A stretch of 63,624 nt of DNA, filler included, from Folioceros fuciformis (taxonomy: Eukaryota), in assembly GCA_049999805.1 (NCBI GenBank). It is 6 parts of 6 records of this genome, joined end to end, with 100 filler letters (N's around TTAATTAATTAA, not from the genome) between each part and the next. Parts side by side here need not be neighbours in the genome. Positions count along the whole stretch, not along the records: positions 1 to 9,942 come from JBNGIO010003112.1; 5 more parts are not named here. One strand, given 5' to 3'. This document shows, one piece after another, positions 4,625 through 63,624 of this stretch. Every line of letters starts with the position of its first letter. Position 1 is the first letter of the stretch. A model generated the notes under the pieces. It was given only the letters and a program-made list of their open reading frames with translations. It did no database searches and was not told the DNA's origin. The translations under genes were made by a program, and so were the position numbers.

Positions 4625-7372
4625 ATGGAAATTGACGATGCGGCTGATCTTGATTGGAACCCTCCTTTTGGTAATCTAAACCCAAGAGAATTGTTCCCTT
4701 GTAAAATGTCATTTGGAGAACATGTTGTATTGAGCCAAGAACGTGGTCAGTGTTATGGCTGCAATGCACAATTTTCAAAACTACAAGATGAGGGAGGGAG
4801 ACTCAATAGAAAAGCATGTTGGTGCGTTTAGAGCATTGGCTGCAAAGTGTGAAAGTTCCTCTAGCGAGGTGATGGAAGAGTAGGACCTCTGTATGGCACT
4901 CATGTTATCCCTGCCATATTCGTGGTCACATTTTGTGACATCACACACAGCTACTCAAACCCAAGTTGCTAAGCTAGCAAGACTCGTAGGGGTAACTTTA
5001 CCTTCCATGTCTTTTGCTGAGCTAGTGGGAGCCCTAATGCAAGAGGAGGCAAGTAGGGGCCAACATAGACGTGCAGGAAAACAACAGGCCCTAGGGATAC
5101 ACATCCAACAACAACAACAAAAAGGGCACAAGGCCCAGCTTTCGTGGTTCTCAATCTCCTAACAGAGGAGCTTCAAAGCTTGGAAGTTCTCCACAGAAGT
5201 CAAATAACCAGAAAGTAAAAAGACCAGGTAATTGTAACTATTGTGGCATACCTGGTCACTAGGCACGTGACTATAGGAAAAAGCAAGCCACTGAATCTCG
5301 CAAGGAACCTTCAACGGGTGCATCCAGTCAAGTCGTGGTGAAGAAACAACCTACTCCCTCTGCCCTTACAGTTTTGACTAGGGAGAATGTAATTGTCTCA
5401 CTAGTCCAGCCCATCTGCCTGGCTGCAAATTCATTCACCCAATGTTCTAATGAGTGGTTTATAGATACAGGCGCTACTGCACACATCTGTTTTGACATAA
5501 GTGCATTTACCACATACTGGTCAGTCAAAGATGAGTATGTTTACCTAGGAGATGATAGATCTCTGGTTACACTTGGCAAAGGCACAATTAAATTGTTACT
5601 ACCTTCTAGGGTCACTTTGCTTCTTAATGAAGTCTACTATGTGCTTGATATGACAAGGAATTTGATATCTGTCAAGCAAATGAATGCAAATAACAATTGT
5701 CATGTATTGTTTACACAAGCAGAATGCCAACTTATAGATGCATTTGATCATAGGAAAATACTTGCCTTTGGGTCATCTGCAGATGGTTTGTTCCTTCTTC
5801 ATACAAAGCAGGAACCTGAAGAGTCTAATCTAAAACAAGATGTATTGTTATCCTCTGACCAGCAAGTAGAAAAGTCTAAACTTTGGCATGCTAGATTGGG
5901 ACATCCACATCATGCTAAGTTGCAGAAACTAGCAATAAGTGATTTGTATCGAGATGGGAAGATAGGTTCCTTACCCAATTTGCCACTGTGTGAAGCCTGT
6001 GTGCTTTCTAAAAGACATTAAGCTGCTTTTAAAAATCAGACTCCCCACAAAGCACATGAAACCTTGGAACTTGTGCATACAAACCTATTGGGCCTCTTCC
6101 TCAAGAGTCCATAGGTGGGGGGAAGTACTTCTTGACCTTCATAGATGATAAAACCAAATTTGTTACTTCATACATCTTGAAAGACAAGTATGAGTGTTTT
6201 TCCTATTTCAAGGAGTATATTAAATAATCTGAAAGGTGGACTAGAAAACCATTGAAGATATTGAGATAAGACAATGGTGGGGAATTTACTTCCAAAGCTC
6301 CCCAGGACTACTGTACAAATGCTGGTATTGGAAGACAACTTACAGTTGTGTACACACCTCAGCAGAATGGAGTAGCTGAGTGCTTGAATTTGACGCTACA
6401 AGAAATGACATCATGTTTGCTTCATCAAGTTAAACTTCCTCTACCATATTGAGCAGAAGCATTAACGACAGCAACTTACCTCAAGAATAGATTGCCAACA
6501 AATTCAGTTGAGAATATGACACCCTATAAGGCCTTTATAGGCCAAAAGCCATCTATTCAGCACCTTAGAATCTTTGGCTGTGTTGCTTATGCTTTTGTTC
6601 CCGAGGAAAAATGCAAGAAAATTTCAAATAAGTCCAAGAAGCTTCTCATGCTTGGTTACACAGAAGGCATCAAGGCATATAAGCTGTATGATGTTTCTAA
6701 AAATAAAATTTCCTATGCAAGAAGTGTTACTTTTGATGAAAATACCTTTGGTTCAATGGGAGATGATAAGGATAAATCTAATGACTTTGTTGTTGAAGAG
6801 AGCGAAGATGTATCAGCCCTTCCTCCAACTTCTCATTTTGATCAGACATATCATGGCACTTCTTCATCTATTAGTGCAAAAGCTGATAATTCTTCCGCAG
6901 CTGAACCTCCACAGCAAAATCAATCTCCTAAAATTGTTGAGCAGTTACCTCCTCCTGGACAGCAACCCAACACAGAAGTTGCTATACCTACAGCTAATGT
7001 TCAGGATGAAAATATTAATCCTGCAGAGGGGAACATATAAGGGAACTTTGACTTACTTAATCAAGCACTTGAGCCAGAGTATCCACCACATCGCTACCCA
7101 GTTCGTGATTGACGTGCCCCAAATTAATATCGTGCTCCAGATTTCAGAGCTAGTAGAGCAGGAGTTTCCTGTGCTGAAATTCTGGCTGTAACATCTCTGC
7201 CCCTTGAACCTCAGTCTCTGGAAGAAGCCTTGAGCAAACCTGATAGTAAGCATTATAAGGTAGCTCTTAAATCAAAATATGATTCTTTGATTGAGAATGG
7301 CACTTGGGAGTTAGTGTCATTACCTCCTGACGAGAATTTGGTATCTTGTAAATGAGTTTTTAAGTTGAAGGT
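4625..7372 (+). mobile_element. Ty1/Copia fragment (gag, PR, IN, RT start), interrupted at 7373 by another element
   Basis: Zinc knuckle CNYCGIPGH, protease WFIDTGAT, LWHARLGH/CEAC, HLRIFGC, then NGTWELV. Many stops. Confidence 0.92.
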
Positions 7373-9942
7373 TGATAATAAGCAGAAGCTTGTTGTAAAC
7401 ATTGAATGAATTAATTAAAATATAAAATCGTGTATGTTTAAATACTGACTAAAGTGTCTATTCACTTTAACCTAACTACCAGTAGGTTATAACTGGTTAA
7501 TCTGTGTTAGGATATCATTTATTATCCCTAACACTCCCACTTAGCCGTAGACACAGATTAATGATTAATCAACCATTAAAACTCGTTACGCTTGGGTCAC
7601 ACGGGTTCCTCCACGACTGAACGGATCGGTCAGTGATTACTCCTACTCTTCAAGAGTTGCACCTACTCTTCTGATTGTCGTTCCTGACTCGTGCAACTTC
7701 AAGGCCGTGAGCAATGGGGCCGTTCTTGGTTGTCTCTATATGCTTGCTCACCACATTTCTAACATGTAGAGTTGAAGCAGCGCTGATCAGCAAGATGGTG
7801 CTGACCAAGAATCGCATCCTGCCTTGCCAAGAGCAACCTTATGTGCACCATATTGGAATAGGCCATCCAAGCTCAAGTCTGGTGAAGACCGTAGGCACTG
7901 GAGAACCCTGGCTTCCAGATTCACAGAGGCGACCGACTTTGGCTTACACGAACATGTTCCGCCACCTACATGCTATCCTGAAGAAGTGCGATGAGTTGAA
8001 AGAGGCCCTGAAGGAGTCAAGCTGCAGACTGTATGAGTTGCAGGAGTTGCTATCTCCCAAGCCTGATCCTAAGGATCTTAACCATCCCTTGACAGAGATA
8101 GAGTGTCACCACTTAGTGAAGGAGCTGATCCTGATGGGTTATGTTGAAGAGGTTGACGGTGGAAAACCTTACAGTCCCTCTCATGTCTATTGGTAAGCGA
8201 CTAAGACTGCTACTATGCAGTTTGCTGTAGACAGTTTACGTTTCATACTCTAAACTTGTTGGCTTCATCCACTAAATTGCTGCTAATTGAACTTGCCTGT
8301 ATCAAGAAGGACAATAACGGGAAGATATTTAAGCAGACAGGGTGGGAGTCTGGACCTCCTTAACCAATCAACAATAAAAAACACCAAGTCCTAGGGTTTC
8401 TTCATCCTTCCCATAGGGCAAGTGACAGCCTCAAGTTGTAGAAGAGGGAGTAGGCATAACAAAATCCTTAAGCCTAAGAGCTGCCACATGTCTATAGTGC
8501 TTTGTTTTACCAAGTCCCTTAGTCAAAACATCGGCAGTGTTGTTGTCTATATGTATGTACTCGACTTTTACAACTCCTCTTTCTACTGCATCACATATAA
8601 AATGATGATACAACTCTATGTATTTTGTTCGTGCATGAAATCTTGGATTTGAGACCAAGGCAATGGCACTCATATTATCACAGAAGAGCTAGGTTAGTAC
8701 ATTTTGAGGTAAGTGAATACCATCTAGAAATTGCCTCTCCCACTCCGCTTCCTTACAAGCATCTGTTAAGGCTTTATACTCAACTTCAGTGCTGGACAGC
8801 GCTAACAATGCTTGCTTTTTACAGGACCAATTTACAAATCCCGACACAAGTTGAAACACATAGGCTGAAAGGCTCCGTCTAGTATTAGCATCTGAAACCC
8901 AGTCGGCATCAGCCCAAGAGGTAAGTACCATCTGTTTATGTCCACTGGCTATATAACGCAAGCCTAGATGAATTGTACCCTTAAGATATCAATAAATCCT
9001 CTTGACAACAGCCTAATGAGGTCTGCCTGGGCATTTGAGAAATTGGCTAACAGTACTCACTGCATAGGAGATATCGGGGCGAGTCCAGTTGGCAATGAAA
9101 ATAAGACAACCCATAGCCTCAGCATAAGGTACAGCTTGCATGTCAGCAAGATCTTGAGCAGTTGTTGGGGACATGTATGTTGTGAGCTTTACTCCCACTG
9201 CTGAGGGAGTGGACACTGGACAAGCAGAATCAAGACCAAAACGTTTCAAGATCTCCTTGAGATATTTAATTTGACGTAGTATAATTGCTCCAGCAGGCCT
9301 ATCCCGTAAGATCTGAATTCCAAGACAAAACGATAATTCGCCTTAGTCTGTCATCTCAAACTCTGCTCGAAGCAAAGCCTTTGCCTTATCTAACATGGAG
9401 GTACTATTACTCAACAAGATGGCATCGTCGACATAAAGGGCAAGAATAACAATGACGGCTCCTTCTAAGAAATAAAACACATTGGAGTATGCCCCACACT
9501 GCACAAAGCCCTTCTGCTTGAGGTACTTCATTATTCGTTTATACCAAGCCCTCGGGCTTTGTTTCAATCCGTAGAGAGTTTTCAGGAGCTTACATACTTG
9601 CTGACGCCGCTGGGTACTAACAAAGCCCTCTAGCTGCTCAATGTACAGGACCTCCTCCAGCTCACCATGGAGAAACGTTGTACACACATCCATCTGATGT
9701 ACCTCAAGGTCAAACTCTGCAGCCATAGCAAGTAAAATCTGAATAGACAGTGGTTTAACAACAGGAGAAAATGTCTCCCCATAATCCACTCCTGGGATTT
9801 GGCTAAACCCTCTTGCAACTAGTCGAGACTTATAGCGGGCAGTTGTGCCATTAGACTTTAGCTTTGTTTTAAACACCACTTACAGGTAATGGGTTTACGT
9901 CCAGGAGGTAAGTCCACCAATTCCCATGTATTGTTCTTTATT
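7373..9942 (-). mobile_element. Ty1/Copia 3' half (RT, RNase H, long 3' region, PPT, ~161-bp 3' LTR at 7373-7533)
   Basis: YKSRLVARGF and YVDD (9343-9879); ADADW and ARTKYIE RNase H motifs; PPT AAGTGGGAG (7534-7542) followed by TGTTAG on the minus strand. Confidence 0.9.
7714..8196 (+). CDS. Antisense accessory ORF inside a Copia 3' region, unknown function
   Basis: Open 160 codons between RNase H and the PPT, opposite to pol; similar by eye to a disrupted antisense frame at ~59370-60003. Confidence 0.55.
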   Translation: MGPFLVVSICLLTTFLTCRVEAALISKMVLTKNRILPCQEQPYVHHIGIGHPSSSLVKTVGTGEPWLPDSQRRPTLAYTNMFRHLHAILKKCDELKEALKESSCRLYELQELLSPKPDPKDLNHPLTEIECHHLVKELILMGYVEEVDGGKPYSPSHVYW

Positions 9943-10042: not shown

Positions 10043-11379
10043 TCAGTCTTCTATGGCCGAGGAACCATTTCGGCTGGAAGCTGATCCCGCTGAATAAGCT
10101 ACCGTTTTCAGGCCAGGTTCCGGCTGCTGATCCCACTCCTTCCCACCTCCTCTCTATCTCTCCCACTTCTCATACTCCTCCCCTGGAGGCTGGCTCAGCC
10201 ACCAAGGGTGAACAGTTGTAGGGGAAGACCTAGCGGGCGACCATCCAGCAAGGAAGAGGCAGCGTCCGTAGATCTTTGAAGATCAGACATCCTCCGAAGT
10301 CTCAGGATAGTCTAAGAGGTGGTAGATCCTTGTGGTGGTAGGGCTAGGAGCTCATTGGTGGCAGGTTGTGCTAGAAGTCTAAATAAGTGGCTGGTGACAG
10401 TCGGCTAGGCTATTAAAATAATATTTCTCAAGTTAGAGAGAGGTGAAGTCAAAGAGAGAGAGAGGCTCCTATAAGATCAGGTGAGCCTGTAGGAGGAGGG
10501 AGTCATTCACTTTGGGAGTCAGTCTATCTCTTTGTGAGCTCTTGGAGGTCCTCTCTTCATGAGCTCTTGTGGTCTGTCCCTGCTTGGTTTAGGACCTGCA
10601 GTGTGTTGCCGGGTGTGCAACGTCTGGTAGGATCGCAAGCTGTGTGTTGCCGGCTGTACAGTGTTTGGTAGGATCGCAGGTAGCGTGTTGCCGGCTGTAC
10701 AGTGTCTGGAAGGATCGCAGGCAGCATGTTGCCGGTTGTATAGTGTCTGGTAGGATCACAAGGTGTAATGACCAGGGTGTAGGGGCTTGCCCCTGGCTCT
10801 TGATTGTAAAGGATGTGTCTTTCTCTTGACCTATCCACTCTTGTTCCTTGCTTGGACAAGTGCTGTAGGCCGGCCATGTTTCATGGTGTCTGGTAAGGTT
10901 GTGGGGGGGAGATATCCAAGAGGGGAGTGTGTTCCCTTCTTTCTTTTGTTTGGGGTTAGTCTAGTGACTCTTGCCGGGTAGGAGGAGTCAGCAGGGAAGT
11001 GTAGAAGGTAGTGGTGTCGTTGCTGGTTGTTGGTAGTTGCTGGTGTTGGTGCTGGAGTGAGAGAGTGAGTGAAGTGTGTGAGGGAAGTCGCAGATCTGAG
11101 AGGTTAGAGTCGTCGTAGTGATTGGAGTGAGTTTGTGGGCACCGAGAGACGTGCAGCTGATCGCCGGACAGCGAGGCCTGTCCTGCGCCTGATCAGAGCT
11201 GGAGGGGAACCCTCGAATCCATCATCGAGTCGTTCAAGTCCGACCCTCCATCCACAGCAGCAAGGAACCCCATCGCTCCTTCGTGGGAACGAAACCCAAT
11301 GTCTCAACGACAGTGGGATAAGTGTGGCCACTAAAGGTGGAACCCGTTGGCAATTAGTGCCCGGGGTTTTGCCTCCACA
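10043..11379 (-). repeat. Dispersed long repeat, probable large LTR (copy 1 of 3)
   Basis: Highly similar to 44473-45415 (+) and 58066-58520 (-); begins TGTGGAGGCAAAACCCCGGG on its own strand; runs into a gap. Confidence 0.85.
10603..10757. repeat. 41-bp minisatellite (4 units) inside the dispersed repeat
   Basis: Unit approximately GTGTTGCCGGCTGTACAGTGTCTGGTAGGATCGCAGGCAGC; only 3 units in the copy at 45067-45180. Confidence 0.9.
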
Positions 11380-24867: not shown

Positions 24868-27800
24868 TGACAAGTATCGAGCACGCGCGGAGGCTGGTAG
24901 GCGTAGGAAAGATTAGATTAGAGAATGCATTACATACCAGTGTTTTATGCACGCTGCAGACGGTTACTAACCGGTAGGGTTTTAAACTAACCTACGACCT
25001 GTATACCTAACCTATACTAGGGTTACACATGCATATACTAACACTGCCACTCAGGTCTAGAGTTAGGATGGGTACAGTTTATATTTTATAGTTATATATA
25101 TATATATTTGTGTGTGTGTGTGTGTGTGTTGCTAACTGCTAATTGCTATGAAACGTAAAACCTAACTAAAGAAACCTGACAACACGCATAGAAACTCATC
25201 AACCCTAAGCAGGGGTCGGCATCGCTTCAGTCTTCACGTTCCCAACTCAATCTTCGATCCACGTTGTGCTCCACCTCAAAGGATTGTCCGCTGACCTCAG
25301 CCCCATGGCAGCTGCATGCTCGTAGTGCTTGATGCGTCCCAGAGCCTTTGTCAGGATGTCTACGGTCATTACTTCCGTGGGGTAGTAGGAAATCCTTATT
25401 AGGCCTTAAGCTACAATCTCGAGAATGTAATGATGTTTGATTCCGATATGTTTGGTTTTGGCGTGGAAGCAAGGGTTCATTGTTAATGCAATTGCGCTCT
25501 AATTGTTGCATAGCAGGTCTACTGGCAGCTTCTGTGGTATGCCGAGCTCCCTCAATGCTCCCACTGACCAAGTGGTTTCCTTGCATGCCTCGGTCAAACT
25601 CTTGTATTATGCTTTTGTAAATGACAGTGCAATTGTAGATTGCTTCTTACTGCTCCAAGAGATTGCACCACCAACTAAGATTGTCACATAGTTCCTAACG
25701 CTCTTCTGGCTGTCTGGGTCTCCACCCCAGTCAGCGTCACTATAGACTGTTAAATGCAATGCCTTCTTTGCCTTTGAGCTGTACAGGATTCCCCACTTTG
25801 CTATTCTAGAAATGTATCTATAGACCCTTATCATCAGGTTCTCATGAGTTCTATTGGGGTTTGAGACAAACCGTGAAGTCAATCTAGAGGTGAAGGCAAG
25901 ACCAGGCCTGCTGCCTTTCATCAAATGCATTACACTTCCATTCTTTGAAGGATATAGTTCAACATATTGAATGTCCTCTTTAGGTATATCTCCCACTTGC
26001 TTTGTATACTTGACATTCTGCTCTACTGGAGTTGCTACAAGCTTGCAGCTGGTCATGCCATATTTGTCTAAAATTTGCAAGGCATACTTATGTTGGTGTA
26101 GGAAAATGGTGCCCGCACCTCGATTTCGAAGTAGCTGCATGCCCAAGCAGTAGGCAAGTGCACCAACCTTTGTAGTCTTAAAGGCTCTTCTCAGGTGCTC
26201 ATTTAATTCAAATATCATGCGTAGGGAGTTGTTGAGGATGATTATGTCGTCCACATAAATGGCAAGTGCTAGGAAGTCTGAACCTTCTCCTTTCTCTCTC
26301 ATATCCAAGCTCTGTTAGGTACGTGTGGATTCTTTCATACCATGTCCGGGGGCTTTGCTTAAGCCCATACAATGTCTTCTTGAGCTTACAAACTGGACGA
26401 GGCACATTTGCAGCCACTATGACCCCTAAAGGAACTTGCATGAAGATCTCCTCCTACAAGTTCCCAGATAGAAATGCTGTAGTGACGTCCAGTTGCTCCA
26501 ACTCAAGGTTATTCACTGCAGCAAGTGCTACAAACATGTGCAGGGTGTTGAGCTTCACTACAGGGCTGAATGTATCATTATAGTCCACCCCATGTATTTG
26601 TGAATACCCTTTTGCAACTAGCCTTGCCTTGTAGCGTGCAATGCTTCCGTCTGCCTTAAGCTTAATCTTAAAAACCCACTTGCTGCCAACTTGTTTCCTA
26701 TTTGCAGGAAGGCTGACTATTGTCCAAGTGTGGTTTTCATACAAAGAGGCCAACTGGGACTAAATGGCCTTGTACCAGCTCTCAGCAGCAGGACAGCTGA
26801 GGGTTGCTTCGTCAGTTGGAGGTTCGTATAGCACAATGTTGGCAGCTAAGCAGTAAGTTAGATGTGACTTTGGGTGCCGACAGTCCTATGACACATACCG
26901 TTCTGGTGGTCTGTGCGTCCTTTGTGACTACTAAGGCTCAAGGTGAGCATGTTTCACCTTCCTTCTGTGCTGTCCAACCGGTGGAGCTAACGGGGTCACT
27001 GTCTTTGCCTCCTCTAAGCTCAACGACCCAACTGAAGGTGTGTCTTGTAAGTTTTGGCTACTGAGGGTGCGTCCAGGTGTCCGCATTGGTGTCTACACAA
27101 GTGGTGACTGTGGTGCTGGGGGTCTTACTAGTGCCGCTTATGCTACAGGGGCTATAGGTGCCAGAGGCGTAGCAGGAAGAGGAACTCGGATTTCTCCGAC
27201 GATCATCTCCTCCTCCTCTTCTGCAAGAGCCATCGTCAGAGCTTGAATAATCAATTAACATCCCTCCCAGTGGCTATTGAGACTCCACACCTTCGACGAA
27301 CACCACATCCCTGGAATGGGTAACTACCCTTGTTCTTCGATTCAACACCTTGTACCCCTTGATTCCTTCTGTGAACCCAATAAAAATGCAGTGAGTTGAC
27401 TTGGTTCGAACTTCTTGCGCAGGTCCTTGTGTATTTGAGTATACACTGACAAGTCAAACACACAGAGATGCAAAAGGTTTGGCTTCTTGCCTGTCCACAA
27501 CTCATAGGGAGTCTTTCCCTTAACAAATTTATGTGCTATCCTGTTTTGGATGTAGGTAGCATAACCTACTGCCTCTGCCCAGTACACTTTTGGTAGGTTT
27601 GCATAATGGAGCATACTGGAAGCTGATGTCGCCAAGGACTGATTTTTTATTCTCAGAAACCCCATTCTGTTGTGGGGTATGGGCATTCATCAACAGCCTG
27701 CCTATGCCATGCTGTATGCAGCATGCATCAAACTCCTTGGAGATATACTCACCGCCATTATCAAACCTCAGGTTTTTCAGATGACGACCAGTTTGGGTCT

Positions 27801-29801
27801 CAGCCCATGTCTTGTACTCTACAAAGCATGCAAAAATGTCCGATTTTTGCTTCCAAAAATGCACTATGCAAAAACGTGTGTAGTCGTCAATAAAAGTGGT
27901 AAAGTACTCCTTCCCTCCAAGAGAAACTGGCAGCTTTCCACACACATCACTGTGTACGAGTTCTAAGATCTCTGTTGCTCGTGTTGCTTGGCCAACAAGG
28001 AAGGACGTACGCTTGTGTTTGCCCAATACACAAGCTGCGCATACTCCAAAATTTTGGAGATTGTCAATGGTGATGCCTTCCACCAGCTTATCCTTGTAAA
28101 TGTTCACAAGCTTCTGAAAGTTGATGTGACCCAGGCAAAGATGCCATAGGTACGTAAGAGAGGGCTTGGCATAGTGTGTGTAGTCGGCAGCTAAGAGTGC
28201 CTTCTCTTCCTTCATGTCCAGATGATAGAGATTGTCCTTCAGCAGTGTCCAATGGCCAATTGCCATCTCCAAAACACACATAACAGCCCGACTAATCTAT
28301 CTTCTGAAGTGAGACAAGGTTCTTTGCCTGTCCAGGTACATAAAGCACTTCTAGGATTTCTAGGTGCTTATCAGGTTTCAAGTCGAGCTGAATGGTCCCC
28401 TGGCCAGCAATTTCATGCTGGGAGTTGTCTCCTAAGCATACAAACTTTGCAGGTGTGCTCTCATTCAACTCTATAAAGTATGCAACATGCGGGGTCATAT
28501 GCTGCGAGGTGCCGCTGTTTATGTACCAAGTGTGTTTAGGGTGGCTGGCAAAGCAAGTGACTACATTGCATTGTTTGGAGTTGTGATCTCGAGGTGAGGT
28601 CACAGTGGTATCATAGATGACACTTGTACAGAACACCTTGCTGTACTTTTGCATGGTCACTGCAGGTGCCCTAAGGGTACACCTTCTCCAGCCAGTCTCT
28701 TGCAGCATACGTCCCAGGTATGATTTGTTATGCCGCAATGCCCACATGGGGGCTTGCCTTTGCCATTGCCAAAGCTAAGAGGCCTAGAGTTATTACCTCG
28801 GCCTCTGCCTCGGCCTCTACCAAATGGACGTCCTCGTTCACGACCTCTTCTAGGTTTGCCCGTCCAGAGAGCCTTGTCTCCTCCTGAAGAGAGAGACGTA
28901 TTTGCTATTTTCCTCCAGGACTCTTCTGTTAACATAGCTGCTATCACTCGATTAACTGTGATGGCTTATACGTCCTGCAGGCCTTGTACCACACTTGACC
29001 AAGTTTCTGGCAGCGTAGTGAGAAGAATTACTGCAAGGAGCTCCTCCTCCAATGCGAAGCCTGTAGATACCAACTTGGCTGGCGAGTTGCAAAACTCAAG
29101 TACGTGTTTATCCATGGGGTCTGTCTCCTTCATCTTGAGGCCCATAAACTGTTTTAACACAAACATTTGCAACATGAGGTCCCTCGAGTCGTACAAGGCT
29201 TTTACTTGCCTCTACCAGGCAGCAACATTTTCTTTAGCTCCCTGGAATACGCCAGTGTGGGTGCTCTTGACACTAAAGTGAAGGAGTGTCCGAGCCTGCT
29301 GATCATTTTCCTCCCATAGGGCCACCTCTTCTGGTGTAGCAGCAGCGCCAATATGGTGCTGTTAACATACTCCAGAACCAAAGTCCAAGAGGCATTTGTA
29401 GCAGCAGCACAGCAGGGCCGCAACGCTCAAGCCAGAAGAGAAGAAATACCAAGTGCCATCGCCACTAAGAATGTGACCATGGCATTAGAGCCAGAATAAA
29501 CTTTAGGAGAACACCACCGCGTCGTAGAAATCCACTGTAGAGTTAGGGAATTGTAGGTGCCGTGATGCATATGCTAACACAAGCATTTCATATTAGAAAT
29601 CGAGAAGATTCCCACTCTGATACCATGACAAGTATCGAGCATGCGCGGAGGCCGGTAGGCGTAAGAAAGATTAGATTAGAGAATGCATTACATACCTGTG
29701 TTTTATGCACACTGTAGACGGTTACTAACCGTTAGGGTTTTAAACTAACCTATGACCTGTATACCTAACCTATATTAGGATTAGACATGCATATACTATT
29801 A
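24868..29801 (-). mobile_element. Structurally complete but mutated Ty1/Copia element (4.9 kb)
   Basis: 176-bp LTRs at 24868-25043 and 29626-29801; 5-bp TSD GAGCC on both sides; PBS at 29615-29625; gag, CGHC knuckle, WYINSG protease, IN, RT (YVDD) and RNase H (YSDADW) in Copia order. Confidence 0.96.
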
Positions 29802-30765
29802 GAGCCATCTCCCAAAGATTCTCTTTTCTCTCTAATTTGTTGATCACAGGGAGCTAGCTTCAATGGGGGTTTTTGCATCCCCTTGATCCTGCTGATTTTA
29901 GTGTGGAGAGCAATGTGTGGAGCCAACCAGGCTCCCTCTAGATTGCTGCTCACGGGAGCTAATTGATGGGGTTGTGAGAAAGGGGAACGAGGCACTGATC
30001 CTACCCCTTTTTGCTTGTTTCTTTTTCCTTCTCTCCTTCACTTACGGGCAAGGGGCAAAGAGCAAGGCAGGTGCCTCAAACTTCATGGGCTATGGCTAAG
30101 CACAAAGGAGGGGGTGTGGTTCTTGGCCTCATGTTCTTTTGCTCCCCCTCCCCCCTGTTTCTTTTCCTTCTCCGGGTGCAGGTGATCTGGCAATTGCAAG
30201 AGTGGTGATGAAGGGTGGCTTTTGAGCTAATGGAGGGGCTGCAAGTAGTGCTGTGAGTCACAGGTAGGAGCTCGGTTGCAGGAGTCACCAGCGCTGAGGT
30301 GGTTTTCTCTTTGCCGGACGGAAGTGTTGTCGGTAGTGAGAGGATTTGGGGCCCAACCAATGAAACATGGAGACAAGGAAGAGTATGGGTAAGGCAGAGG
30401 TACAGGTGGATTCCACTCTCGCCCCACTAGTGCCAAAGAAGGCCCCCAAGTACGAGAAGATGGAATTTTTGTGCCTTGCAGGATAGGCGTCACCCCAGGA
30501 TCTATGGGACTTCCATCCCTATGTTGTGGATCCTGACGTTAGGATGGAATGGCTCTACGGATGGCACTGGTCCTATGCCCACCCTAAGATGGCAGGGGAG
30601 TGCCACCGACAAATACGGAATGCACATCTGACAATGGGAGATCTTGGGAACACCTGACCTTAGGATAGAAGCTAACGTGGATCTGTCACTAACGTGGATC
30701 TGTCACTACATATCTTATCTTAACAGCACAAACCCTTTAATCATTATTAGCACTAGTTATCATTA

Positions 30766-35279: not shown

Positions 35280-37583
35280 ATGGGTGTTTAAATTGAAGCT
35301 CAATGCAAAAGGGGAGATAGCACGCTATAAGGCACGTTTGGTAGCTAGAGGCTTCACTCAGGTGGAAGGCTTGGATTACCAGGAAACATTTTCCCCAGTA
35401 GTCAGATCACAATCAATCAGGGTGATTCTTGCACTTGCTGCTGAGTATGACTTGGATTTACACCAAATGGATGTGTGCACAGCCTTCCTATATGGATCTC
35501 TCGATGAAGATCTATACATGACACAACCAGAGGGGTATGAAGACCCCAAACATCCTAGAAAGGTTCTCAAGCTGCTTAAAACGATTTACGGCTTGAAACA
35601 AGGTGGCAATGTGTGCCTGACCATTCATGTGTATTTGCTGAGTGTGTCCTTCGTTCAAAGTGCTGCAGACAGCAATGTTTATAGACTGTCAAGAGGAGAG
35701 GCTTATGTTGTGCTCGCCTTATATGTTGACGACGTGATCCTGGCGACAAAAAATCAAGACCTGTTAGCAGAAGTCAAAACAATGCTAAGCAGTAAGTTTG
35801 AGATGAAAGATATAGGGGAATTGAAATTCTGTTTGGGCATCCAATTGCTCCCGGTCAGATCTGAAGGTCTGCTGTACATACACCAATGTAAGTACATCCA
35901 ACAGCTGCTGGATAAATTCAAGCTCGATGAGGCACGTCCTGCCTCTACCCCATCTGCCCTAGGAGCTAAGCTTACAAGCTTACAGTGTCCCCAGTCTGCT
36001 GAAGAACAAAAGGAGATGATAGATATCCCTTACCGTCATGCAGTAGGTAGTCTACTGTTTGTCGCAAACTAGACTCATCCAGATATACAATACTATGTAA
36101 GTACCCTGTCACAATTTCTAGAGAAGCCTGTTAAGGCACACTGGGTAGCTGCTAAACGTGTATTTAGATACCTAAAAGGGACCCAATACTATGGACTTTC
36201 CTATAAAAGCAGCGGACAAGGACAACTTACTTTAAGAGGATTTACAGATGCAGATTGGGCATCTGATAGCGACAGCCGTAAAAGCTTATCTACATATTGC
36301 TTCTTATTAGCATCTGCGGTTGTAAGTTGGAGTTGCAAAAAGCAGACATCAATTGCTCTATCCTCGACAAAAGCTGAATATAAAAGCTAAAAGACTCCTC
36401 AAAGGAGGCAGAGTGGGAATGTACCTTCCTACAAGACCTTGGGCAGCAGCAGATAGCAACAACTCCACTCCTGTGTGATAATATGTCAGCACCTGCCCTA
36501 GTTGCAAATCCTCGCTTTCACGCAAGAACAAAACATATCGAGATACAACATCATTATATCAGGGATGTTGTTGAGCGAGGAGTTGTCAAAGTTGGCTATG
36601 TGAGCACAGAAGACAATACTGCAGACATCCTAACTAAAGCCCTGCCTAAGTATAAGCACTTTCTACACATGGCCGGACTCGGCTTACAGGATTTCTCACG
36701 GTATTTCAACGACGAGCTGGCATGAGCAACTGTGGACTTATCTGTAATTACAGTATGCTCAGCACAGCAGAAATGGTCATCAGCAGGCGGATGAAGCCCC
36801 ACGATTACCTTATCGCCTGGCTGCTTGATACCTCAACGACCGTATTCGCCATCTTCCTTGAGCTGGCCCAAGAGCTTCACTGCCTCCCTAAGACGGACGA
36901 CCAAGCCAGCCTCTCTCTCGATTTCCTCCTGTGTCCATGGCCGGAGTTTTTTCCGCCCCGTCCTCGCCAACTGCTACTGGCCTCCTCCAGCTCAGAGTGA
37001 TGTTAAGCTCAACCTGATATCCCATGATATTCAGGTACTGGCCACAGCACAGGCGATGCTCCTCCCCATCAGTCACAATTTCAGGCTCCTAGATAGTGGA
37101 TTGGGAGTTGGATTCCTGTCCGTGCTCCATCCTTCTCCTTGCACGTCATCTGCTACCACTCGCCCTGCTTGCATACAGCTGCCCCCTTCGCATCTTCGTC
37201 ACAACAACAATTGCCAGACGTGTGATTGTGAAGAGGGCTGCCAGCATATAGGCAAGGGCGGTGTCCAGCTTAATCGCCATCACTGGCTCACGTTTTTCCA
37301 GCTGTGTCTGGGAGCGCTTGAGTTTGTTGTGTCCTGGTGCGTCCGAGTTCGATTGTTGGGCATAATGTCTCGCATGTGTCCTGCTTAAGCTTAAAAGGGA
37401 GTGTGAATCGTTAACCCTGGACAGCTTATGCTAGCTATTGAACGGGTTATGTTAATATACATTTAATTTTGCAACCTTTGGATATTAGGGTTTAGTATAA
37501 AAACACATCTGAGATACTTTGCTAATTAATCACTCTTGTTTGTGAGACTCGTGCCATTGCTCATTAGGCTCTCGTCTTACACA
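35280..37583 (+). mobile_element. Ty1/Copia 3' half (RT, RNase H, ~680-bp 3' region, PPT, LTR 37402-~37583)
   Basis: YKARLVARGF, QMDVCTAF, YVDD, DADW and ARTKHIEI; PPT AAAAGGGAG followed by TGTGAA...TACACA. Confidence 0.92.
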
Positions 37584-40297: not shown

Positions 40298-41854
40298 CTA
40301 ACCAACCACTCCCTTATTTCCATTCACAATCCTTTCCTCGCTACAACCACTCGAAGGTGAAGAGCTCGGACTTGAATAGTAGTAGTAATCGGACGAAGGA
40401 GTATCACATTGATAAGGCTCAGGTGCAAAAGGAGAGGAATCGCTTGGCACGGGGCTGTCATACGGGGTGCTCGGTTCATCAGCTGGTGCGGGTGTGGGTT
40501 CATATATTGTAGCCGGTGCGGGTGCTGGTGCCGGTTGATGCACACTTGTTGGTACTGGTGTTGGTGTTGTTGGTGTTGGTAGTGTAGGTGGTAGTGGTGG
40601 GATGCTTCCATCGCCGCTTGAACTGTTGGAATTGCTTGAACTAGTTGAACCGCTTGAACCATTGGAATTGCTTGAACCGCTTGAACTGGTTCCATGATAT
40701 ATGGCAACATTCCAATCATACGATACAGTGGCGTTGCATAGAGCTTGAATGCTAGTGGTGCCACTTCCACTGCCGCTTATAGTGACAGGCCCTGATCCTT
40801 GGACATACCACGAAGCCAAAGTACCCAAAATCCCGGCTTCCAAATGATAGAGATCCCACCATAAGAAGGTCTTAGAATTCTCACAATGCTTTGTGCTGCT
40901 TCTGCACGGGGTATTCCCGTCACCGCAACATGCTCTTGTAGAATGTTGGATTCCATACTTGGTAGGATGATGAATAATCTCATTAGTCGCGTGAAGAGTT
41001 GGAAGAATAACAAACTTAGCCTCGGTCAACCTATGACGAAAGAGATGATGGAGTTCGGTATTCAACTTCCTATTGTAGGTACTAATATGCTGATTGACTT
41101 CTTTGTTGCACCCATTGGACCTAGTGGCATGAATAACCGAAGGAGAACACCCCAAGGATCCAACATCAGCTATGATAAATTTTCGGGCCCCTTGTTTGTA
41201 TAACTTGTGGATGTTTTTCACCATCCTATGAATAAGGGTTCTGTGAAATTCTTTTCCTGAAATGTCGCGTCTACCCATAATTCTTTGATGAATGTCGTCG
41301 GTACCCACATCAATATAATACAATGAGTGTGCTAGATGTTTGGCAACATGATGATTCACATCACCACCATCTTTGGCTAATTGTCTTGCAAGAGCTGGAA
41401 CTGCTCTTCGTTCAAACAATTCCACTTGATGGTGGAAAGGTAGAACACGCCCATATTGTTTTCCAGTACTCTTTAGCAACCCTGATTTGCCAGAAGCAAA
41501 ACTCACACCTTCATGTCTAATAGCTCTTGGTGTATGAGATAAAAAGGGTTCCTGAAATTTTTCATAACCAAGATGACTTGCAAAGTAATCGACCAAAATG
41601 CGACCATTGCTGAATCTCCCTGTAGCCTTTCTTGAGTCAAACTCTTTTCCATAAGGAGAGTAATTTGCTTTTGCCTCCGATTTTAAGTGGAGATGATTAT
41701 TGTTGCCTATCTCTGCCACGGAATCTCCAAAAGAGTATATGGAACCTTTAAATCTGTGCGAAGATGCATGTGAGCTAAGAGCACAAGTGCATAAAATGCA
41801 TAAGATAATAACTTGAATACTCGTTGACATGTTGAAGAATTGGCTCATTTTCAC
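40298..41854 (-). CDS. Secreted GDSL/SGNH esterase-lipase with Ser/Gly- and Pro/Thr-rich C-terminal extension, intronless
   Basis: Hydrophobic N-terminal signal; block I FGDSV; PYG..F...ATGRFSNGR; block II GVSFASG; block III VGTDD; LGCSP; ACCG; block V WWDLYH. Confidence 0.9.
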   Translation of the reverse strand: MKMSQFFNMSTSIQVIILCILCTCALSSHASSHRFKGSIYSFGDSVAEIGNNNHLHLKSEAKANYSPYGKEFDSRKATGRFSNGRILVDYFASHLGYEKFQEPFLSHTPRAIRHEGVSFASGKSGLLKSTGKQYGRVLPFHHQVELFERRAVPALARQLAKDGGDVNHHVAKHLAHSLYYIDVGTDDIHQRIMGRRDISGKEFHRTLIHRMVKNIHKLYKQGARKFIIADVGSLGCSPSVIHATRSNGCNKEVNQHISTYNRKLNTELHHLFRHRLTEAKFVILPTLHATNEIIHHPTKYGIQHSTRACCGDGNTPCRSSTKHCENSKTFLWWDLYHLEAGILGTLASWYVQGSGPVTISGSGSGTTSIQALCNATVSYDWNVAIYHGTSSSGSSNSNGSSGSTSSSNSNSSSGDGSIPPLPPTLPTPTTPTPVPTSVHQPAPAPAPATIYEPTPAPADEPSTPYDSPVPSDSSPFAPEPYQCDTPSSDYYYYSSPSSSPSSGCSEERIVNGNKGVVG

Positions 41855-42910
41855 CTTTCAAAGACAATATTTAAAAAAAACACACACAACAAAAAATAAA
41901 CAAAATTAGAAAATTAGAATTTTTCTCATAATACAAATCCAAGTAAAATACAACATCTAGGGCTCCTTAAGAAAGATACAACATCCAAGACTACTCTACA
42001 ATGTGTAGGGCTTCTAGAAGAAAGAGGCAAGATTCAAGGCTCCTCCAAAATAGATGCAAGATCTAGGGCTCGTCCAAGAGAAAGGCAACATCCACAGCTT
42101 CCCCAAGAGATATAACATCCATGGTTTTTCCCAAGATAATAGATGAAATATATTGGACTGGATCCACAACTACTATGCAACATCCTACACAACAATCCTG
42201 GATACTCTACTCTCTGTAAGAGTCATACAACATCCATGAAATACACCATCCACAAGTTCTTTCAAGAAAAGAGACAAGCAATATCCACAACTCCTCCAAG
42301 CAACATCCACACAGTCTCACACCATCACAAAGGTTACAAACTATCAAAATAACTTTTGACATACTTCCCAACTCTATTGTGGAAGAGCTGCAAGGCAAAA
42401 AAACCAACATCCAGCCAACAAAACAATGAAGATGCAAGCACGTACCGTATAATGGTAAGGTGCTAGATGAGATGTTGCTGGTGAGAGAGGTACACACATT
42501 GATAGGAGTGCCACCACAAGTCCATTATATAGGGGCTTGAGGTATCTCAGTTAATTAGGTCTAACATAGTACTCAAAAGTAGACACCAATTTATGACCTC
42601 TTCTTATGTAGTTACTATACAGGTGTGTTCTATGGACCTTATGTATGTTAGCAAGTAGGTTAGGAAAGCTTTTATCACCATTAATCAAGTGAATTCTTTA
42701 CTTGGGGCCTAAGGATCTTGCATCTTCATTTAACAGTGAAAAAAGTACCTAAGTTGGATACTATTTATAATTTACCAACGGGTCTCTATTACTTCCACGC
42801 CAACTATTGCTATTACAACCATAATCAAAGGGTCTTGTACTACTTCCATGTTTAGTATAAACCACTACCAAAGAGCTGTCTCTTACTCCCTATCTAGAAT
42901 TAGTATTACT

Positions 42911-58065: not shown

Positions 58066-58520
58066 ATCCAAGAGGGGAGTGTGTTCCCTTCTTCCTTTTG
58101 TTTGGGGTTAGTCTAGTGATTCTTGCCGTGTAGGAGGAGTCAGTAGGGAAGTGTAGAAGGTAGTGGTGTCATTGTTAGTTGCTGGTGTTGATGCTGGAGT
58201 GAGAGAGTGAGTGAAGTGTGTGAGGGAAGTCGCAGATCTGAGAGGTTAGAGTCGTTGTAGTGACTGGAGTGAGTTTGTGGGCACCGAGAGAGGTGCAGCT
58301 GACCGCTGGACAGCGAGGCCTGTTCTACGCCTGATCGGAGCTGGAGGGAGCCCTCGAATCCATCATCGAGTTGATCAAGTCCGACCCTCCATCCACAGCA
58401 GCAAGGAACCCCATCGCTCCTTCGTGGGAACGAAACCCAATGTCTCAACGACAGTGGGATAAGTGTGGCCACTAAAGGTGGAACCCATTGGCAATCAGTG
58501 CCCGGGGTTTTGCCTCCAAA
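58066..58520 (-). repeat. Dispersed long repeat, probable LTR (copy 3 of 3)
   Basis: Matches ~10914-11379; inserted into a Copia RT/RNase H region. Confidence 0.85.
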
Positions 58521-60104
58521 GTATAGTATCATAGTTTCTAAAAACTCCTAGCAGAGCCCATTGGTTAGCCGTTAAGCGCATTTACAGATACTTAAAAGGC
58601 ACCCTTACTTACGGGTTGCACTATGTGGCTAGTGGACAGCAGAAATTCTTACTTATAGCATTCGCAGATGCTAATTGGGCTTCTGATGCTGACTCCCGTA
58701 AGAGTCTATCGGCGTATGTCTTCCTACTGGCTATAGGAGCTGTGAACTGGTCTTGTGAAAAGAAAACATCCTTGGCGTTGTCATCCATAGAAGCTGAGTA
58801 CAAAGCCCTAATAGACACATGCAAGGAATTAGAGTGGGAGAGGCAATTCTTGGAAGCAATCCACTTACCTCAGATTGGCCCCACTTCTCTGCTATGCAAC
58901 AATATGTCAGCTATAGCGCTTGTCCAGAACCCGAGGTTCCCTGCAAGGACGAAACACATCAAACTTTATCACCACTACGTTCGTGATGTAGATGAAAGGG
59001 GCATGGTGAGAGTTCAGTATGTTAGTACCAATGAAAACACTGCTGATATCTTTACTAAGGGTCTGTCCAAGGAGAAGCACTACAAACACCTAGAAGCACT
59101 TGGGCTGAGGGCATTTTCCATGCCCATTACTAGTACATGACCTACCTAGTTCTATCCACATGGAGACAGCTTGCAAGGCACCTTGCCCAATTCGCAGTAG
59201 TCCATACTTGGTCTTGCTGTCCGCACATAGTACATGACTTGCTTTACTGTCTCTTGTTCACAAGTAGGTCGACGATGAGGTGCCCTTAGTGGATGAAACC
59301 TAAGTTTAGAATCCAGTCGTGAGAGCATCACATGTTAGAATTTTTGGAAGATGGCAGGTTTACCTCTCACTTGTTGCTGAGTGAAGGATGTATCCAAGTC
59401 CCTCGAGCTCCTACATCACCGCACTATACTCTGCAGGCGTTAAAGGTTGTGACAATTCGTCCTCTGCAGGTGTCATAGCCAGTAACACCTCCTTGCTTTC
59501 TTCTTTGCAGACGAGAGGAGGTCTTCTAGTTCGTTGCACTTCTCCAGCGCCTTGATCTGATGTCACAGCAGCTTCATGTCAACTTTGGTTGGCCACCATC
59601 CCTTCCCAGTCACAGAGGGAGCTGACAAAGCTGGAAGCTGTTTGGGTGGCAGAGGTCTCAGATGCTTGATGCTCCTACTGCTCATCTCCAGAGAATCGAA
59701 GTTGCTGCAGGCCACGCTGAAGAGGCGAGTGGTGATGGTGGTAACACACTGCCACGATTAAGCAAAGCCCCCTACTGACTGCCAAAGCATTGTTTCTGCT
59801 AAGCGCCGAGTCGCCCTTTTGTAGCTTGGATGAATTGCCAGGCTACAGGCTATGATCGCAATCAATGCCATGGCACAGGAGGATAGCGTGACAAGTAATA
59901 ATGGCAGCTGAAGTGCCTCTATGAGGAAACACGATGCTAGCTGGAGTTCGTGTGAGTCGTCCTTCAGTCCTTGGCTCATGAGCTTCGCTTTTAACCATCG
60001 CACGTTAAGAGGGAGTGTTAGGGTTAATCAGTGATTAGTCAATTTAACCTGCTTAGGTTAGAAATAACCAAGGGTCACACCCTTTCGGGTTACCCAAACT
60101 AACA
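58521..60104 (+). mobile_element. Ty1/Copia 3' end (RNase H, ~860-bp 3' region, PPT, short or truncated LTR 60016-60104); same family as 7373-9942
   Basis: YVASGQQK..ADANW and ARTKHIKL; PPT AAGAGGGAG followed by TGTTAG...CTAACA. Confidence 0.9.
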
Positions 60105-61329
60105 AAGTACTTTACACAATTTGGTTTTGAACACTTTAATCACAACAACATATTTTGCCTTTCTGTCCAAGCCTTCTGCTGATAAACAAACAGCTTGTCG
60201 AGTAAGATTGTCTTGTATGAAAGCCGAAAGAACTTCTGTGAGTATACCCTCGACATCTTTCTTGGCTTGCCTGCCTTCCTTGAAGGCTTTTTGAGCGTCC
60301 CGAATTTTGGGGTTTTGTGAGGTGATAAAATCATGATGGCTTGATGGCAGGGTGTAGAGAAACACGGCTGTTGCCTTTACCTCATCAATTTGCCAGCCAG
60401 AGCTAGCTAGTTTGGCACAGGCTGTTCTGAAGGTAGATATGTGGTGCTAGGCCATATCTGTGTCCTTCATTTTTAGTGAGAACAAATTTCTCACTGTTAC
60501 CACCTTTGTGCCAAGATCTTGTGCTTGGTACAAGTTTGCAAGTTGTGACCAAGCTTGGACGGACGATGTTGTTCCATCGCTTAATGTAACATTTGTCGCT
60601 CCAGTCTTGCAAGTATAAGCCTCCTTGCTTTCTTATCCTTTTTCTTCCATTGATCCACGTTAGCCTGATTTGATTGTCCCGCATTGAGAACACCTTCTGG
60701 TTCCGTGCCATCCACTATCCCCATAAGGTCAGCCTCATCAAGGATGGAGGTCATGCGAACCACCCAGGTATCATAATCAAAACCGTTAAAATGGTCCCTA
60801 TCTTTTATGTCAACATTGTAGTTATGTATGGTGGTACCCATGTTATTAGATGTAGTGAGTGTTCCTGTCTAGTTGCTGGACCTGGACGGTTTTAGCGTCG
60901 TCTAGGAGTGTTGCTAGAAGAGGAGGGTCTCGCTAAATGATCTAGATAGAGTTTGATTGTCATGATTCTCTTTTCTGATGCTACAAGTCTGGATTCTAGT
61001 GTAGGTCGATCATGATTGTCAAATCTGCTAAATCTATGTTCTAAGAAGGTGAGGCGCAGTTCTTGGATAGGCTCTGTACATTTTGGGTTGTAGGGTGCTA
61101 CGTCTGCTAATTGGTCCAGGTGCCTCATTTCCCTTGTAGCGTTGAAACTTTCTACAGGGATACGCTTTATCCAGACATGTGAAGCATTTGCAATATTGCA
61201 GTTGCCTCTATATAGGATCCATTGTCTGCAATTTGCTTAGAACAAAATTTTCGTGATTAGGGATTCAGATCCCATCTTGTGATGGAAGGAGGGCAGCCTT
61301 CCTATGCTTGGCTTACAGCTTTGATACCA
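60105..61329 (-). mobile_element. Ty1/Copia 5' end (PBS, extra 5' ORF, gag); related to 54319-57826
   Basis: PBS TGGTATCAAAGC at 61318-61329; gag DRDHFNGFDYDTWVVRMTSILDE...WKKKDKKARRLIL. Confidence 0.8.
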
Positions 61330-61647
61330 TAACGCGAATTGGTCCTGAAGAGAAGAATCAATAAATTAAGTGTGTGAGCAGTACAGGGAGTTTGTGTTTT
61401 ATGATGCATCATGAAGAGACATGACTCTACGGAGAAGTGCATCAGTTTAATCTACATGCTACATGTGACTCATAAGCTAAATTATGAAAAGTGCCCTAAC
61501 TTGCTCAAGTGCGTTTTTGTCTTCCGACACGTTACTCACAACAACATCGTGGTGTCCAACTCTAGCTATAGTGATGGAAACATGAAAGTTTCCATTCTGT
61601 AAACTTTCCTAGAGCGGAGAGCGTTGGAGAGAAGAGACTTGGTCTCA

Positions 61648-63624
61648 TGAAACAACAATAATTGAATTAAAGGAAAAAGTCTTTAAGTACAAAATTGTAG
61701 ATAACTAAGTGACTTTTCATTTTTGGGATTGGTTACTTGACCTAACTTATATGTTTGATTAAAGTCCAAGTGACATGGTTATCAGAGGACCCTAACCTTG
61801 TTCAACACACCCCCTCAACCACGACACGACAAAGTAACGCAATAAGCATAGCCCGAAGATGACGTGCATGCTCCACTTGGTGTTGTCCACCTGCGCGCTT
61901 GCAATAGCAGCATTCCTTCTAGCCAAATACTGGCAACAAGAGTAAAAAACGGGCATGGAGACAGCAAGGAGGCGATGCAGCTGACATCCCAGATTAGTAG
62001 CAGCAGCAAGTGGCGATTGGATGTGGATGGTTAGCTTCATCCGCCATTGTCTGCTGATTTGTTTATGAAAAACAAACACCTGTCCAGACCTGCTAATTGA
62101 AAAACCTTAGTCTGTATGCAGGTTCTATAACATCTGGCTTCTGCACATCACTGTTCAGAACTGGAAGGGAGAACAGCTAAGTAGTTGATGAGACCCATAG
62201 CTTCCATGTGAAAGTTGTGCTTAGTAGTAGGCAGAATTTTAGTAAGCAGGTCTACCGTGTTGAGGTCAGTAGGGATGTACTCGACCTTGACAAATTTCCT
62301 TTCAACAAAATGACGCACAAAATGGTGCTGGATTTCTATGTGCTTAGTCCGGGCATGAAATCGAGGGTTTCCTACCAGGGCTATTGTCGATTGATTATCA
62401 CAGTATATGGCAGTGGGTGCAGGTTGCTTGAAGGACAAGGCAGCAAGGAATGTCCTTTCCCACTTGGCCTCCTTGGCTGAGGCTGTAAGGGCTTTATACT
62501 CAGCCTCCGTAGATGAGAGAGCAACTAACGATTGTCTCTTAGAGCTCCAGTTTACCACAACATCTGAAAGGAAGAAGCAGTATGCTGAGAGACTTCGACG
62601 GCTCTCAGGATTAGTAGCCCAGTCTACATCAGCATAGCCCACCAAGGTGATATCTTGTCCTTTCCCTCTAAAGCATAATCCATAGGTTGAAGTTCCTCTT
62701 AAATATCGTAGAATGCGCTGTACTACTCCCCAGTGCTCCTTACCTGGGTTTTCCAGGAACTGAGACACGGAGCTAACAGCATGTTGGATGTCAGGCCTAG
62801 TCTACTAACTTGTGTAGTTCAAGCAGCCCACAGCGTGATGATAAGGGACTTCATACATAGCTGCCTCCTCATGCTCATCCTGGGGGGATTGCTCGGAAGT
62901 AAGCTTGACTCCAATGTTGCCAGGGGTATTTATTGACTGGTTTGGCTTGATCTAGGTTGAAACGACGTAAGGTCTCATTGATATATTTTGTTTGATGGAG
63001 GACAAGGGTTCTATTTGCCCTGTCCCTGAGCAACTGGACACCTAGGACAAATGTAAGTTGTCCGATGTCCTTCATGTCGTATTCCTTATGCAGCATTGCC
63101 TTTACTCACTCCAGTAACTCTTTGTTGTTTGACACGAGGATGGCGTCATCTACGTAGAGAGCCATGATGACGATGTGGCCACCTTTGGTATACATGTAGA
63201 CGTTGGCATCTGCAGGATTTTGAAGGAAACCAATTGATCTCAGGTATATGTCTATACATTTATACCATTCACGGGCACTTTGTTTGAGCCCGTACAGGGT
63301 TTTCTTCAGCTTGCAAACCCAGTCAGGGTGCTCACGATCCTCAAAGCCTTCAGGTTGGACCAAATATATTTCTTCTTCTAATTCCCCATAGAGAAATGCA
63401 GTAGATACATCTATCTACTCTAGGTCCCAATCTCGTGCAGCAACCAGAGCTAGAATCATTCTAATAGTTTGCGTTTTGACTACAGGGCTGAATGTTTCAT
63501 TAAAATCAATGCCAGCAACTTGTGAGAAACCACGTGCTACCAAACGAGATTTATGGCGTGCCATCTGTCCATCTGCATTAAGTTTATGTTTGAAAACCCA
63601 TTTGCAGCTCACAGCCTTACGGCC
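61648..63624 (-). mobile_element. Ty1/Copia 3' half (RT, RNase H, PPT, LTR ~61648-61807)
   Basis: CKWVFK, HKSRLVARGF, YVDD, GYADVDW and ARTKHIEI; a purine tract followed by TGTTGAA at 61807. The far LTR boundary is uncertain. Confidence 0.92.

Follow-up and report, generated by a model that had tools for sequence, protein, structure and literature searches.

Open reading frames (ORFs) that lie between pol and the 3′ long terminal repeat (LTR) and run antisense to the main genes are known from plant Ty3/Gypsy retrotransposons, including gene23 of maize Grande, RIRE2 of rice and Retand of Silene, where their function is unknown (PMC7264820); the portion of that article drawn on here likewise names PvRetro13 as carrying an antisense additional ORF and does not state its superfamily. 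In Retand, an antisense TRP28 ORF is present in 97% of clusters and the region concerned spans 2.9–6.6 kb (PMC11963269). For Ty1/Copia elements, the survey of Neumann et al. describes extra ORFs of at least 250 codons in 582 elements, falling into 45 similarity groups, and in the excerpts of that survey used here the sole Copia lineage feature named is the sense-oriented eORF-3′F of SIRE (PMC6317226). The length cut-offs of these surveys were 250 codons (PMC6317226) and 600 bp (PMC11963269). Antisense promoters have been reported for Arabidopsis AtRE1, for apple Mdoryco1-1 and for human T-lymphotropic virus (HTLV) (PMC7264820). Here we describe a 160-codon antisense frame between pol and the 3′ LTR of a decayed Ty1/Copia element in a 63,624-nt stretch of the genome of Folioceros fuciformis (assembly GCA_049999805.1), referred to throughout as the window, together with a broken counterpart in a second, diverged copy. 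We read the frame, with a probability of roughly 0.55, as an antisense additional ORF confined to one subfamily, whose small product would have a hydrophobic, signal-like N-terminus followed by a C-terminal domain made of helices.

We refer to the element carrying the intact frame as c1 and to the second copy as c2. The features of the two copies are as follows.

7714..8196, plus strand: antisense additional ORF of c1, from ATG (context GCAATGG) to TAA, 160 codons
8431..9879, minus strand: pol of c1 (reverse transcriptase (RT) and RNase H), one frame with 4 in-frame stops, its 5′ part lost at N runs (9943)
7534..7542, minus strand: polypurine tract (PPT) of c1, AAGTGGGAG on the minus strand, arranged as in c2 and in two related elements, G and J
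7375..7533, minus strand: short 3′ LTR of c1, starting TGTTAGGG, outer end approximate (7373–7395)
7421..7427, plus strand: TATAAAA in antisense orientation inside the LTR, a candidate antisense promoter element
8373..8378, plus strand: AATAAA, a candidate poly(A) signal located between the convergent stops of ORF and pol, 177 nt past the former
58535..59140, plus strand: RNase H of c2, 201 codons open (58535–59137), 63% identical to c1
59360..59871, minus strand: broken counterpart of the ORF in c2, with ATG (GCCATGG), hydrophobic stretch, 3 in-frame stops and 1 frameshift
60007..60023, plus strand: PPT (AAGAGGGAG) and LTR start (TGTTAGGG) of c2, the LTR cut near 60100 by the gag of another element

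The c1 frame (160 codons from ATG to TAA, 161 from stop to stop) occupies an 885-nt spacer between pol and the PPT and is convergent with pol, with the pol stop at 8431–8433, the ORF at 7714–8196 and the PPT at 7534–7542. The RT of c1 gives an RVT_2 match of the Copia type at 9346–9879 (minus strand, E value 4.3e-50) and its RNase H region follows at 9042..8434 on the same strand, opposite to the ORF; c2, a 3′ fragment of a Copia element on the plus strand, has the same layout with the strands reversed. On the minus strand of c1 the PPT and LTR start read AAGTGGGAG followed directly by TGTTAGGG (7542..7526), and the LTR measures roughly 145–160 bp, with summed sequencing-contig depth peaking at 7382–7563 and loose contig ends piling up at 7373. 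Left of about 7363 lies DNA of a plus-strand Copia element (5263–7363), and ownership of the ORF by that element was ruled out because the LTR and PPT of c1 lie between them. Ahead of the ORF, an ATG at 7561 begins a frame of 19 codons (counted by eye), and a splice donor at the ORF stop (TGGTAAG) was dropped, the possible acceptors being too near to it for an intron of plant size. A 460-nt repeat (10914–11377 and 58066–58518), 93–97% identical and in the same orientation, adjoins both c1 and c2 on their truncated 5′ sides, the c2-side copy coming directly after a pair of N runs. Five such pairs of 44-N runs, 12 bases apart, occur in the window at 9943, 22286, 34781, 45416 and 57966, at a spacing of about 10.6–12.5 kb; they are probably masked stretches, and one pair interrupts c1 upstream of its RT.

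The locus resembles the Gypsy ORFs of positional class aORF-3R (Grande, RIRE2 and Retand), as those are characterized in the excerpts cited above, in its place between pol and the 3′ LTR, its orientation antisense to gag-pol and its fast-evolving protein. It differs from them in its Ty1/Copia host, in a spacer of about 0.9 kb compared with 2.9–6.6 kb in Retand, in a length of 160 codons that lies under both survey cut-offs, and in a hydrophobic, signal-like N-terminus where the Gypsy products have nuclear or DNA-binding features. A scan against Pfam returned no match to the Transposase_28 domain (PF04195) of the Retand/Tat TRP28 proteins, and the RT of c1 is not that of a Ty3/Gypsy element. 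Env-like products of SIRE-clade Copia elements carry membrane segments. The SIRE eORF-3′F shares with the c1 frame a position between pol and the 3′ LTR of a Ty1/Copia element and high divergence between groups, and is unlike it in being sense-oriented and much longer (PMC6317226). The antisense orientation of the c1 frame sets it apart from the SIRE env-like family. Among retroviruses, HBZ is an antisense gene and ASP of human immunodeficiency virus type 1 (HIV-1) a small, hydrophobic antisense product; the c1 frame is like these in its location toward the 3′ end of the element and in the presumed placement of its promoter, within or close to the 3′ LTR, and unrelated to them in sequence, and theirs overlap env or accessory coding regions whereas the c1 frame lies in an otherwise non-coding spacer. 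AtRE1 and Mdoryco1-1 are Copia elements, and the candidate promoter of c1 would likewise tie antisense transcription to a plant Copia-type LTR retrotransposon, although what the portion of the literature at hand reports for those two elements is promoters or transcripts and not a conserved protein frame. As judged from sequence, the c1 frame fits the positional class aORF-3R and stands outside both the TRP28 family and the SIRE env-like family.

The evidence that the frame is a gene comes from its comparison with c2. A tblastn search of the c1 protein against the window places c2 as the best non-self match, yet at an E value of 0.41. Because BLAST does not link segments that are separated by stops and a frameshift, we wrote a frameshift-aware local alignment, in which c1 and c2 score 74 compared with a mean of 34.2 (standard deviation 5.4, maximum 51) for 100 protein shuffles, none of which reaches 74. 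A second set of 60 shuffles (34.8 ± 4.6) yields a z-score of 8.5 for the ORF frame, and the other five frames of the c1 region score 27–41 against c2 (z −1.0 to 1.8); with whole spacers as query the ORF frame reaches z 15.7 and every other frame stays at or below 2.0. When the c1 protein is aligned to both strands of the 63.6-kb window, the c2 site is the top non-self place (74, next best 52) and lies at a position and orientation equivalent to the c1 ORF. The start codons of the two copies align, both as ATGG, and each is followed by a strongly hydrophobic stretch. Residues are identical in 24 of 69 aligned codons, and nucleotide identity over these codons is 48, 62 and 33% at codon positions 1, 2 and 3, in an alignment picked by amino-acid score, which favors positions 1 and 2. 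At the nucleotide level identity is confined to small islands, and the sense frames across 7714–8193 contain 6–7 stops each and lack c1–c2 likeness. The ratio of nonsynonymous to synonymous substitution rates (dN/dS) between c1 and c2 is not estimable because synonymous sites are saturated, with third positions 33% identical. In dinucleotide shuffles of the 885-nt spacer, a stop-free frame of at least 161 codons arises in 13 of 2000 and an ATG frame of at least 160 codons in 4 of 2000. Measured against these controls the c1–c2 likeness exceeds chance, and the alignments indicate that the two frames are homologous at the protein level, in the ORF frame only; frame-specific likeness of this kind is the pattern that selection on a protein would leave once synonymous sites saturate.

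A preliminary description, made by reading the DNA, had noted an antisense frame between RNase H and PPT in two Copia copies, stops and one frameshift in the second copy, a hydrophobic N-terminal stretch in both and no obvious nucleotide similarity between them. Each of these observations is borne out: the quoted translation strings are recovered from the ATG-to-TAA frame at 7714–8196 and its counterpart at 59871..59360, and three-frame translation of the minus strand locates the 3 in-frame stops and the frameshift. Of the tests it proposed, alignment against shuffled controls supports it, and tBLASTn of the 160-residue product, carried out within the window, supports it in rank and not in E value.

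We used two further Copia elements of the window, G and J, as controls for the c1–c2 signal.

36115–36722, plus strand: RNase H of element G, with its PPT near 37392–37401 and a spacer of about 670 nt
62801..62151, minus strand: RNase H of element J, with its PPT near 61805–61815 and a spacer of about 330 nt
8261..8272, no strand assigned: short nucleotide motif of c1 (antisense GGCTTCATCCAC) between pol stop and ORF stop, independent of the ORF

Comparison of RNase H among seven Copia pieces in the window makes c1 and c2 mutually closest at 63%, followed by G (55–60% identical to c1 and c2), J (50–54%) and three other pieces (37–45%). The G and J spacers, compared in six frames with those of c1 and c2 and with each other, have no significant likeness in any frame (z at most 3.8) and no detectable relative. 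Spacers of related Copia elements thus do not ordinarily yield a frame-specific signal, which makes the c1–c2 signal special, and the ORF is therefore not general in the local clade, let alone in Ty1/Copia; the label of a conserved Ty1/Copia feature, which the preliminary description had used, overstates what these comparisons indicate to be an ORF limited to a single pair of subfamilies. In both controls most of the pol-to-PPT spacer is open on the sense strand: G (spacer 36726–37400) has a 197-codon frame at 36795–37388, and J (spacer 61816–62147) has one of 82 codons that starts at 62040 and continues through the PPT. The antisense strand holds just short ATG-plus-hydrophobic peptides. G and J are not alike in these spacers. 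Around J, the interval 60102–62801 contains, in this order, the J RT/RNase H, the PPT, an LTR-like stretch (about 61331–61815), a stretch resembling a primer-binding site (TGGTATCAAAGC, minus strand, near 61330) and the gag of another copy (60868..60102), an arrangement that looks like two tandem elements with one common LTR.

Among the alternatives to a protein-coding gene, one is that the conserved entity is a cis-acting or antisense non-coding RNA or DNA region, acting for example through double-stranded RNA regulation, and that the open frame of c1 is incidental. Antisense transcription with a possible RNA-level role has been discussed for LTR retrotransposons (PMC7264820, in the part consulted), the c2 frame is broken, and c1, c2, G and J all keep a short nucleotide motif nearby, whether or not they have the ORF. 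This motif, G[T/C]GGATGAA[G/A]C[C/T] in the sense direction, occurs four times in the window, at 8261–8272 in c1, 59289–59300 in c2, 36787–36798 in G and 62033–62044 in J, each time 65–165 nt past a pol stop, and it contains a sense ATG that opens 10, 9, 69 and 82 codons, respectively; possible roles are those of a cis element or of the beginning of a short ORF in the sense direction. A non-coding explanation is nevertheless hard to reconcile with conservation in one of six frames only, with second codon positions most conserved and third positions near random, and with a nucleotide alignment that holds in small islands and no Rfam match on 7200–8600 at E ≤ 1, and we consider it improbable.

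Database searches revealed no family for the product. An exhaustive HMMER search of 1.84 billion representative proteins found no relative, and its two matches were rejected as tandem-repeat proteins whose E value sums seven near-identical repeats of about 28 bits each. A word-indexed search of 5.8 billion protein clusters (88–280 residues) gave 12 candidates, none scored, and pattern matching in metagenome contigs gave 122 hits, none confirmed. The Pfam scan at E ≤ 10 returned only DUF4248 (E 0.041, below its cut-off), and neither PDB sequences (best E 0.72) nor the ESM Atlas contained a relative, in agreement with the earlier statement that the family was not recognized. A search of the full-text literature, with the supplementary ORF tables of PMC6317226 outside its reach, found no antisense ORF family described for Copia.

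These searches bear on a second alternative, in which the ancestor of c1 and c2 picked up, in a single event, part of a host gene or of some other mobile element, which is now a decaying passenger without function for the element. Confinement of the frame to c1 and c2, the lack of a detectable relative in G and J and its breakage in c2 would all fit such a history, and transduction is discussed as an origin of such ORFs in the excerpt available of PMC7264820. Against it, no donor-like protein is found in the 1.84 billion representatives, in the word search of 5.8 billion clusters or in Pfam, and neutral decay would erase likeness equally across frames and codon positions, which is not the pattern seen; there is, in our estimate, only a small chance that this alternative is correct.

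The predicted product has two recognizable parts.

7714..7779, plus strand: hydrophobic N-terminus, residues 1–22, MGPFLVVSICLLTTFLTCRVEA, putatively signal-peptide-like or a membrane anchor
7897..8145, plus strand: conserved C-terminal part, residues about 62–144, with TG.(P/G)W.P, KC(D/N)EL, SSC, PLT and EL..(M/L)GY(V/I)

Kyte-Doolittle maxima over 13 residues are 2.62 in c1 (residues 4–16) and 2.80 in c2, and the c1 product has V-E-A before residue 23, whereas c2 has no obvious cleavage motif. A single-sequence AlphaFold model places helices at residues 3–35, with a predicted local distance difference test (pLDDT) of about 68–78, and at 76–113 and 128–140, with low confidence at 34–72. The product would comprise about 160 residues: a hydrophobic N-terminus resembling a signal peptide or serving as an anchor, a linker that is variable and probably disordered, and a C-terminal helical domain in which two cysteines are conserved.

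We examined sequencing contigs for further copies of the family, using three DNA runs (X1, X2 and X3) from one plant sample, possibly the one from which the assembly derives, and requiring at least 80% likeness on 7200–9900. The numbers of matching contigs were 371 in X1, which covers 30 of 30 depth bins, 313 in X2 and 258 in X3, and these counts imply that the family is multi-copy, ORF region included. A further run, X4, guessed to be RNA, gave 0 contigs on 7200–9900 with pol included, a result that says nothing on expression. Diverged contigs extend over 7737–8232 (85 differences, 1 gap) and 7859–8141 (55 and 40 differences, 0 gaps). In the selected subset of contig rows available, which comprises 40 of the 1019 places with differences and 12 of the 36 with indels, none of the indel places falls in the 483-nt frame, whereas the non-coding flanks (748 nt) have 9 and pol has 3, and by our own arithmetic the chance that all 9 non-pol places miss the frame is about 0.011. 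Differences in this subset with X1/X2 support number 2 in the frame, both at synonymous third positions, and 9 in 405 nt of internal spacer (P about 0.016, own arithmetic), and of the 17 in pol, 3 are synonymous if each is considered on its own, which fits private decay of the copy in the window. The contig counts lend modest support to a conserved frame. At the level of the family, then, two diverged copies in the window share the frame, contigs of at least 80% likeness from X1/X2 cover the whole ORF region, and G and J are without detectable relative. Changes of C>T and of G>A, at 173 and 177 places respectively, dominate the differences in X3, unlike those in X1 and X2 of the same sample, and X3 looks like a bisulfite-type library.

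Several observations weigh against a conserved antisense gene. Over about 170 codons, the antisense frame of c2 is interrupted by 3 stops and 1 frameshift, whereas the 201 codons of its RNase H are free of such lesions, and the gene is therefore, as far as this copy indicates, dispensable or already dead in the c2 lineage. The pol of c1 has 4 stops in 483 codons, which predicts just about 1.3 stops in 160 codons, and for this reason the intactness of the c1 frame alone is weak evidence and not significant. The AlphaFold model is poor (mean pLDDT 55.5; predicted template modeling score (pTM) 0.40), so that structure prediction, another of the checks proposed at the outset, did not strengthen the case. 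The hydrophobic N-terminus could be a composition effect of a purine-rich sense strand by the PPT, and G and J also have an antisense ATG with a hydrophobic peptide, of 44 and 28 codons, inside their PPTs. To these are added the empty protein, domain and structure searches, the lack of a relative in the G and J spacers, the selection of contig rows and the bias of the codon-position alignment. The proposal of a selected accessory protein is partly supported, with frame-specific protein homology between c1 and c2 in its favor and the broken c2 frame beside an open RNase H against it. The last alternative, a fortuitously long c1 frame with fortuitous similarity in c2, could draw on the weak plain tblastn E value, on there being two readable copies only, on a c1 intactness compatible with its mutation load and on the poor structural model, and it is very improbable given that no shuffle in 100 attains the observed score, that such an ATG frame arises in 4 of 2000 shuffles, and that c2 is the best non-self place on both window strands, at the equivalent site and with aligned start codons.

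On balance, the frame is probably a real, fast-evolving, lineage-restricted antisense gene of a short-LTR Ty1/Copia subfamily pair in a land-plant genome. Under this reading, the ancestor of the c1 and c2 subfamilies would have carried a translated gene, and purifying selection would have kept the protein as RNase H identity fell to 63% and synonymous sites became saturated. The gene would have been dispensable, given its breakage in c2 and the lack of a detectable relative in G and J, the elements next in relatedness. Transcription would be convergent to pol, starting antisense within or close to the short 3′ LTR (TATAAAA at 7421) and ending near AATAAA at 8373, and the product may be routed to membranes or the secretory pathway and there influence the cycle of the element itself, in an accessory or regulatory capacity; a self-regulatory role of this kind is a guess by analogy with other antisense retroelement genes, and the functions named in the preliminary description (movement, silencing suppression or copy control) are likewise conjectural. 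The full proposal, that the short 3′ LTR is bidirectional and expresses a translated antisense accessory protein, which enters the secretory or membrane system and tunes replication of the Copia element, is tentative, and we regard it as rather unlikely. The case rests on two copies in one window, and its scope is likely one subfamily in one genome.

The remainder of the window contains other coding features. On the minus strand, 46397–50278 is a single 1294-codon frame for a PLS-type pentatricopeptide repeat (PPR) protein with E and DYW deaminase domains, whose DNA includes seven 306-nt tandem units of 77–82% identity and which identifies the window as nuclear DNA of a land plant, and 40301–41857 is an uninterrupted GDSL-lipase-like frame of 519 codons. 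Two 182-nt direct repeats (24868–25049 and 29626–29807; 92% identical) flank a minus-strand Copia element with protease (PR), integrase (INT) and RT; they are probably the LTR pair of another lineage, with a gap of at most about 180 nt between RNase H and LTR.

Extra genes are the least understood part of LTR retrotransposons, and antisense ones are documented for Ty3/Gypsy elements of the Tat/Retand type. The length cut-offs of existing surveys, 250 codons (PMC6317226) and 600 bp (PMC11963269) in the sections cited here, would miss a 160-codon frame, and if small antisense frames are translated, Copia accessory genes would be overlooked by current annotation. The intact c1 copy, with its signal-like N-terminus, would be a convenient handle for testing such proteins. 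Should the tentative proposal of a translated, replication-tuning product hold true, the c1 and c2 frames would represent, within the literature searched, the first family of antisense accessory genes known from plant Copia elements, and would parallel in plants the small, hydrophobic antisense proteins that retroviruses encode.

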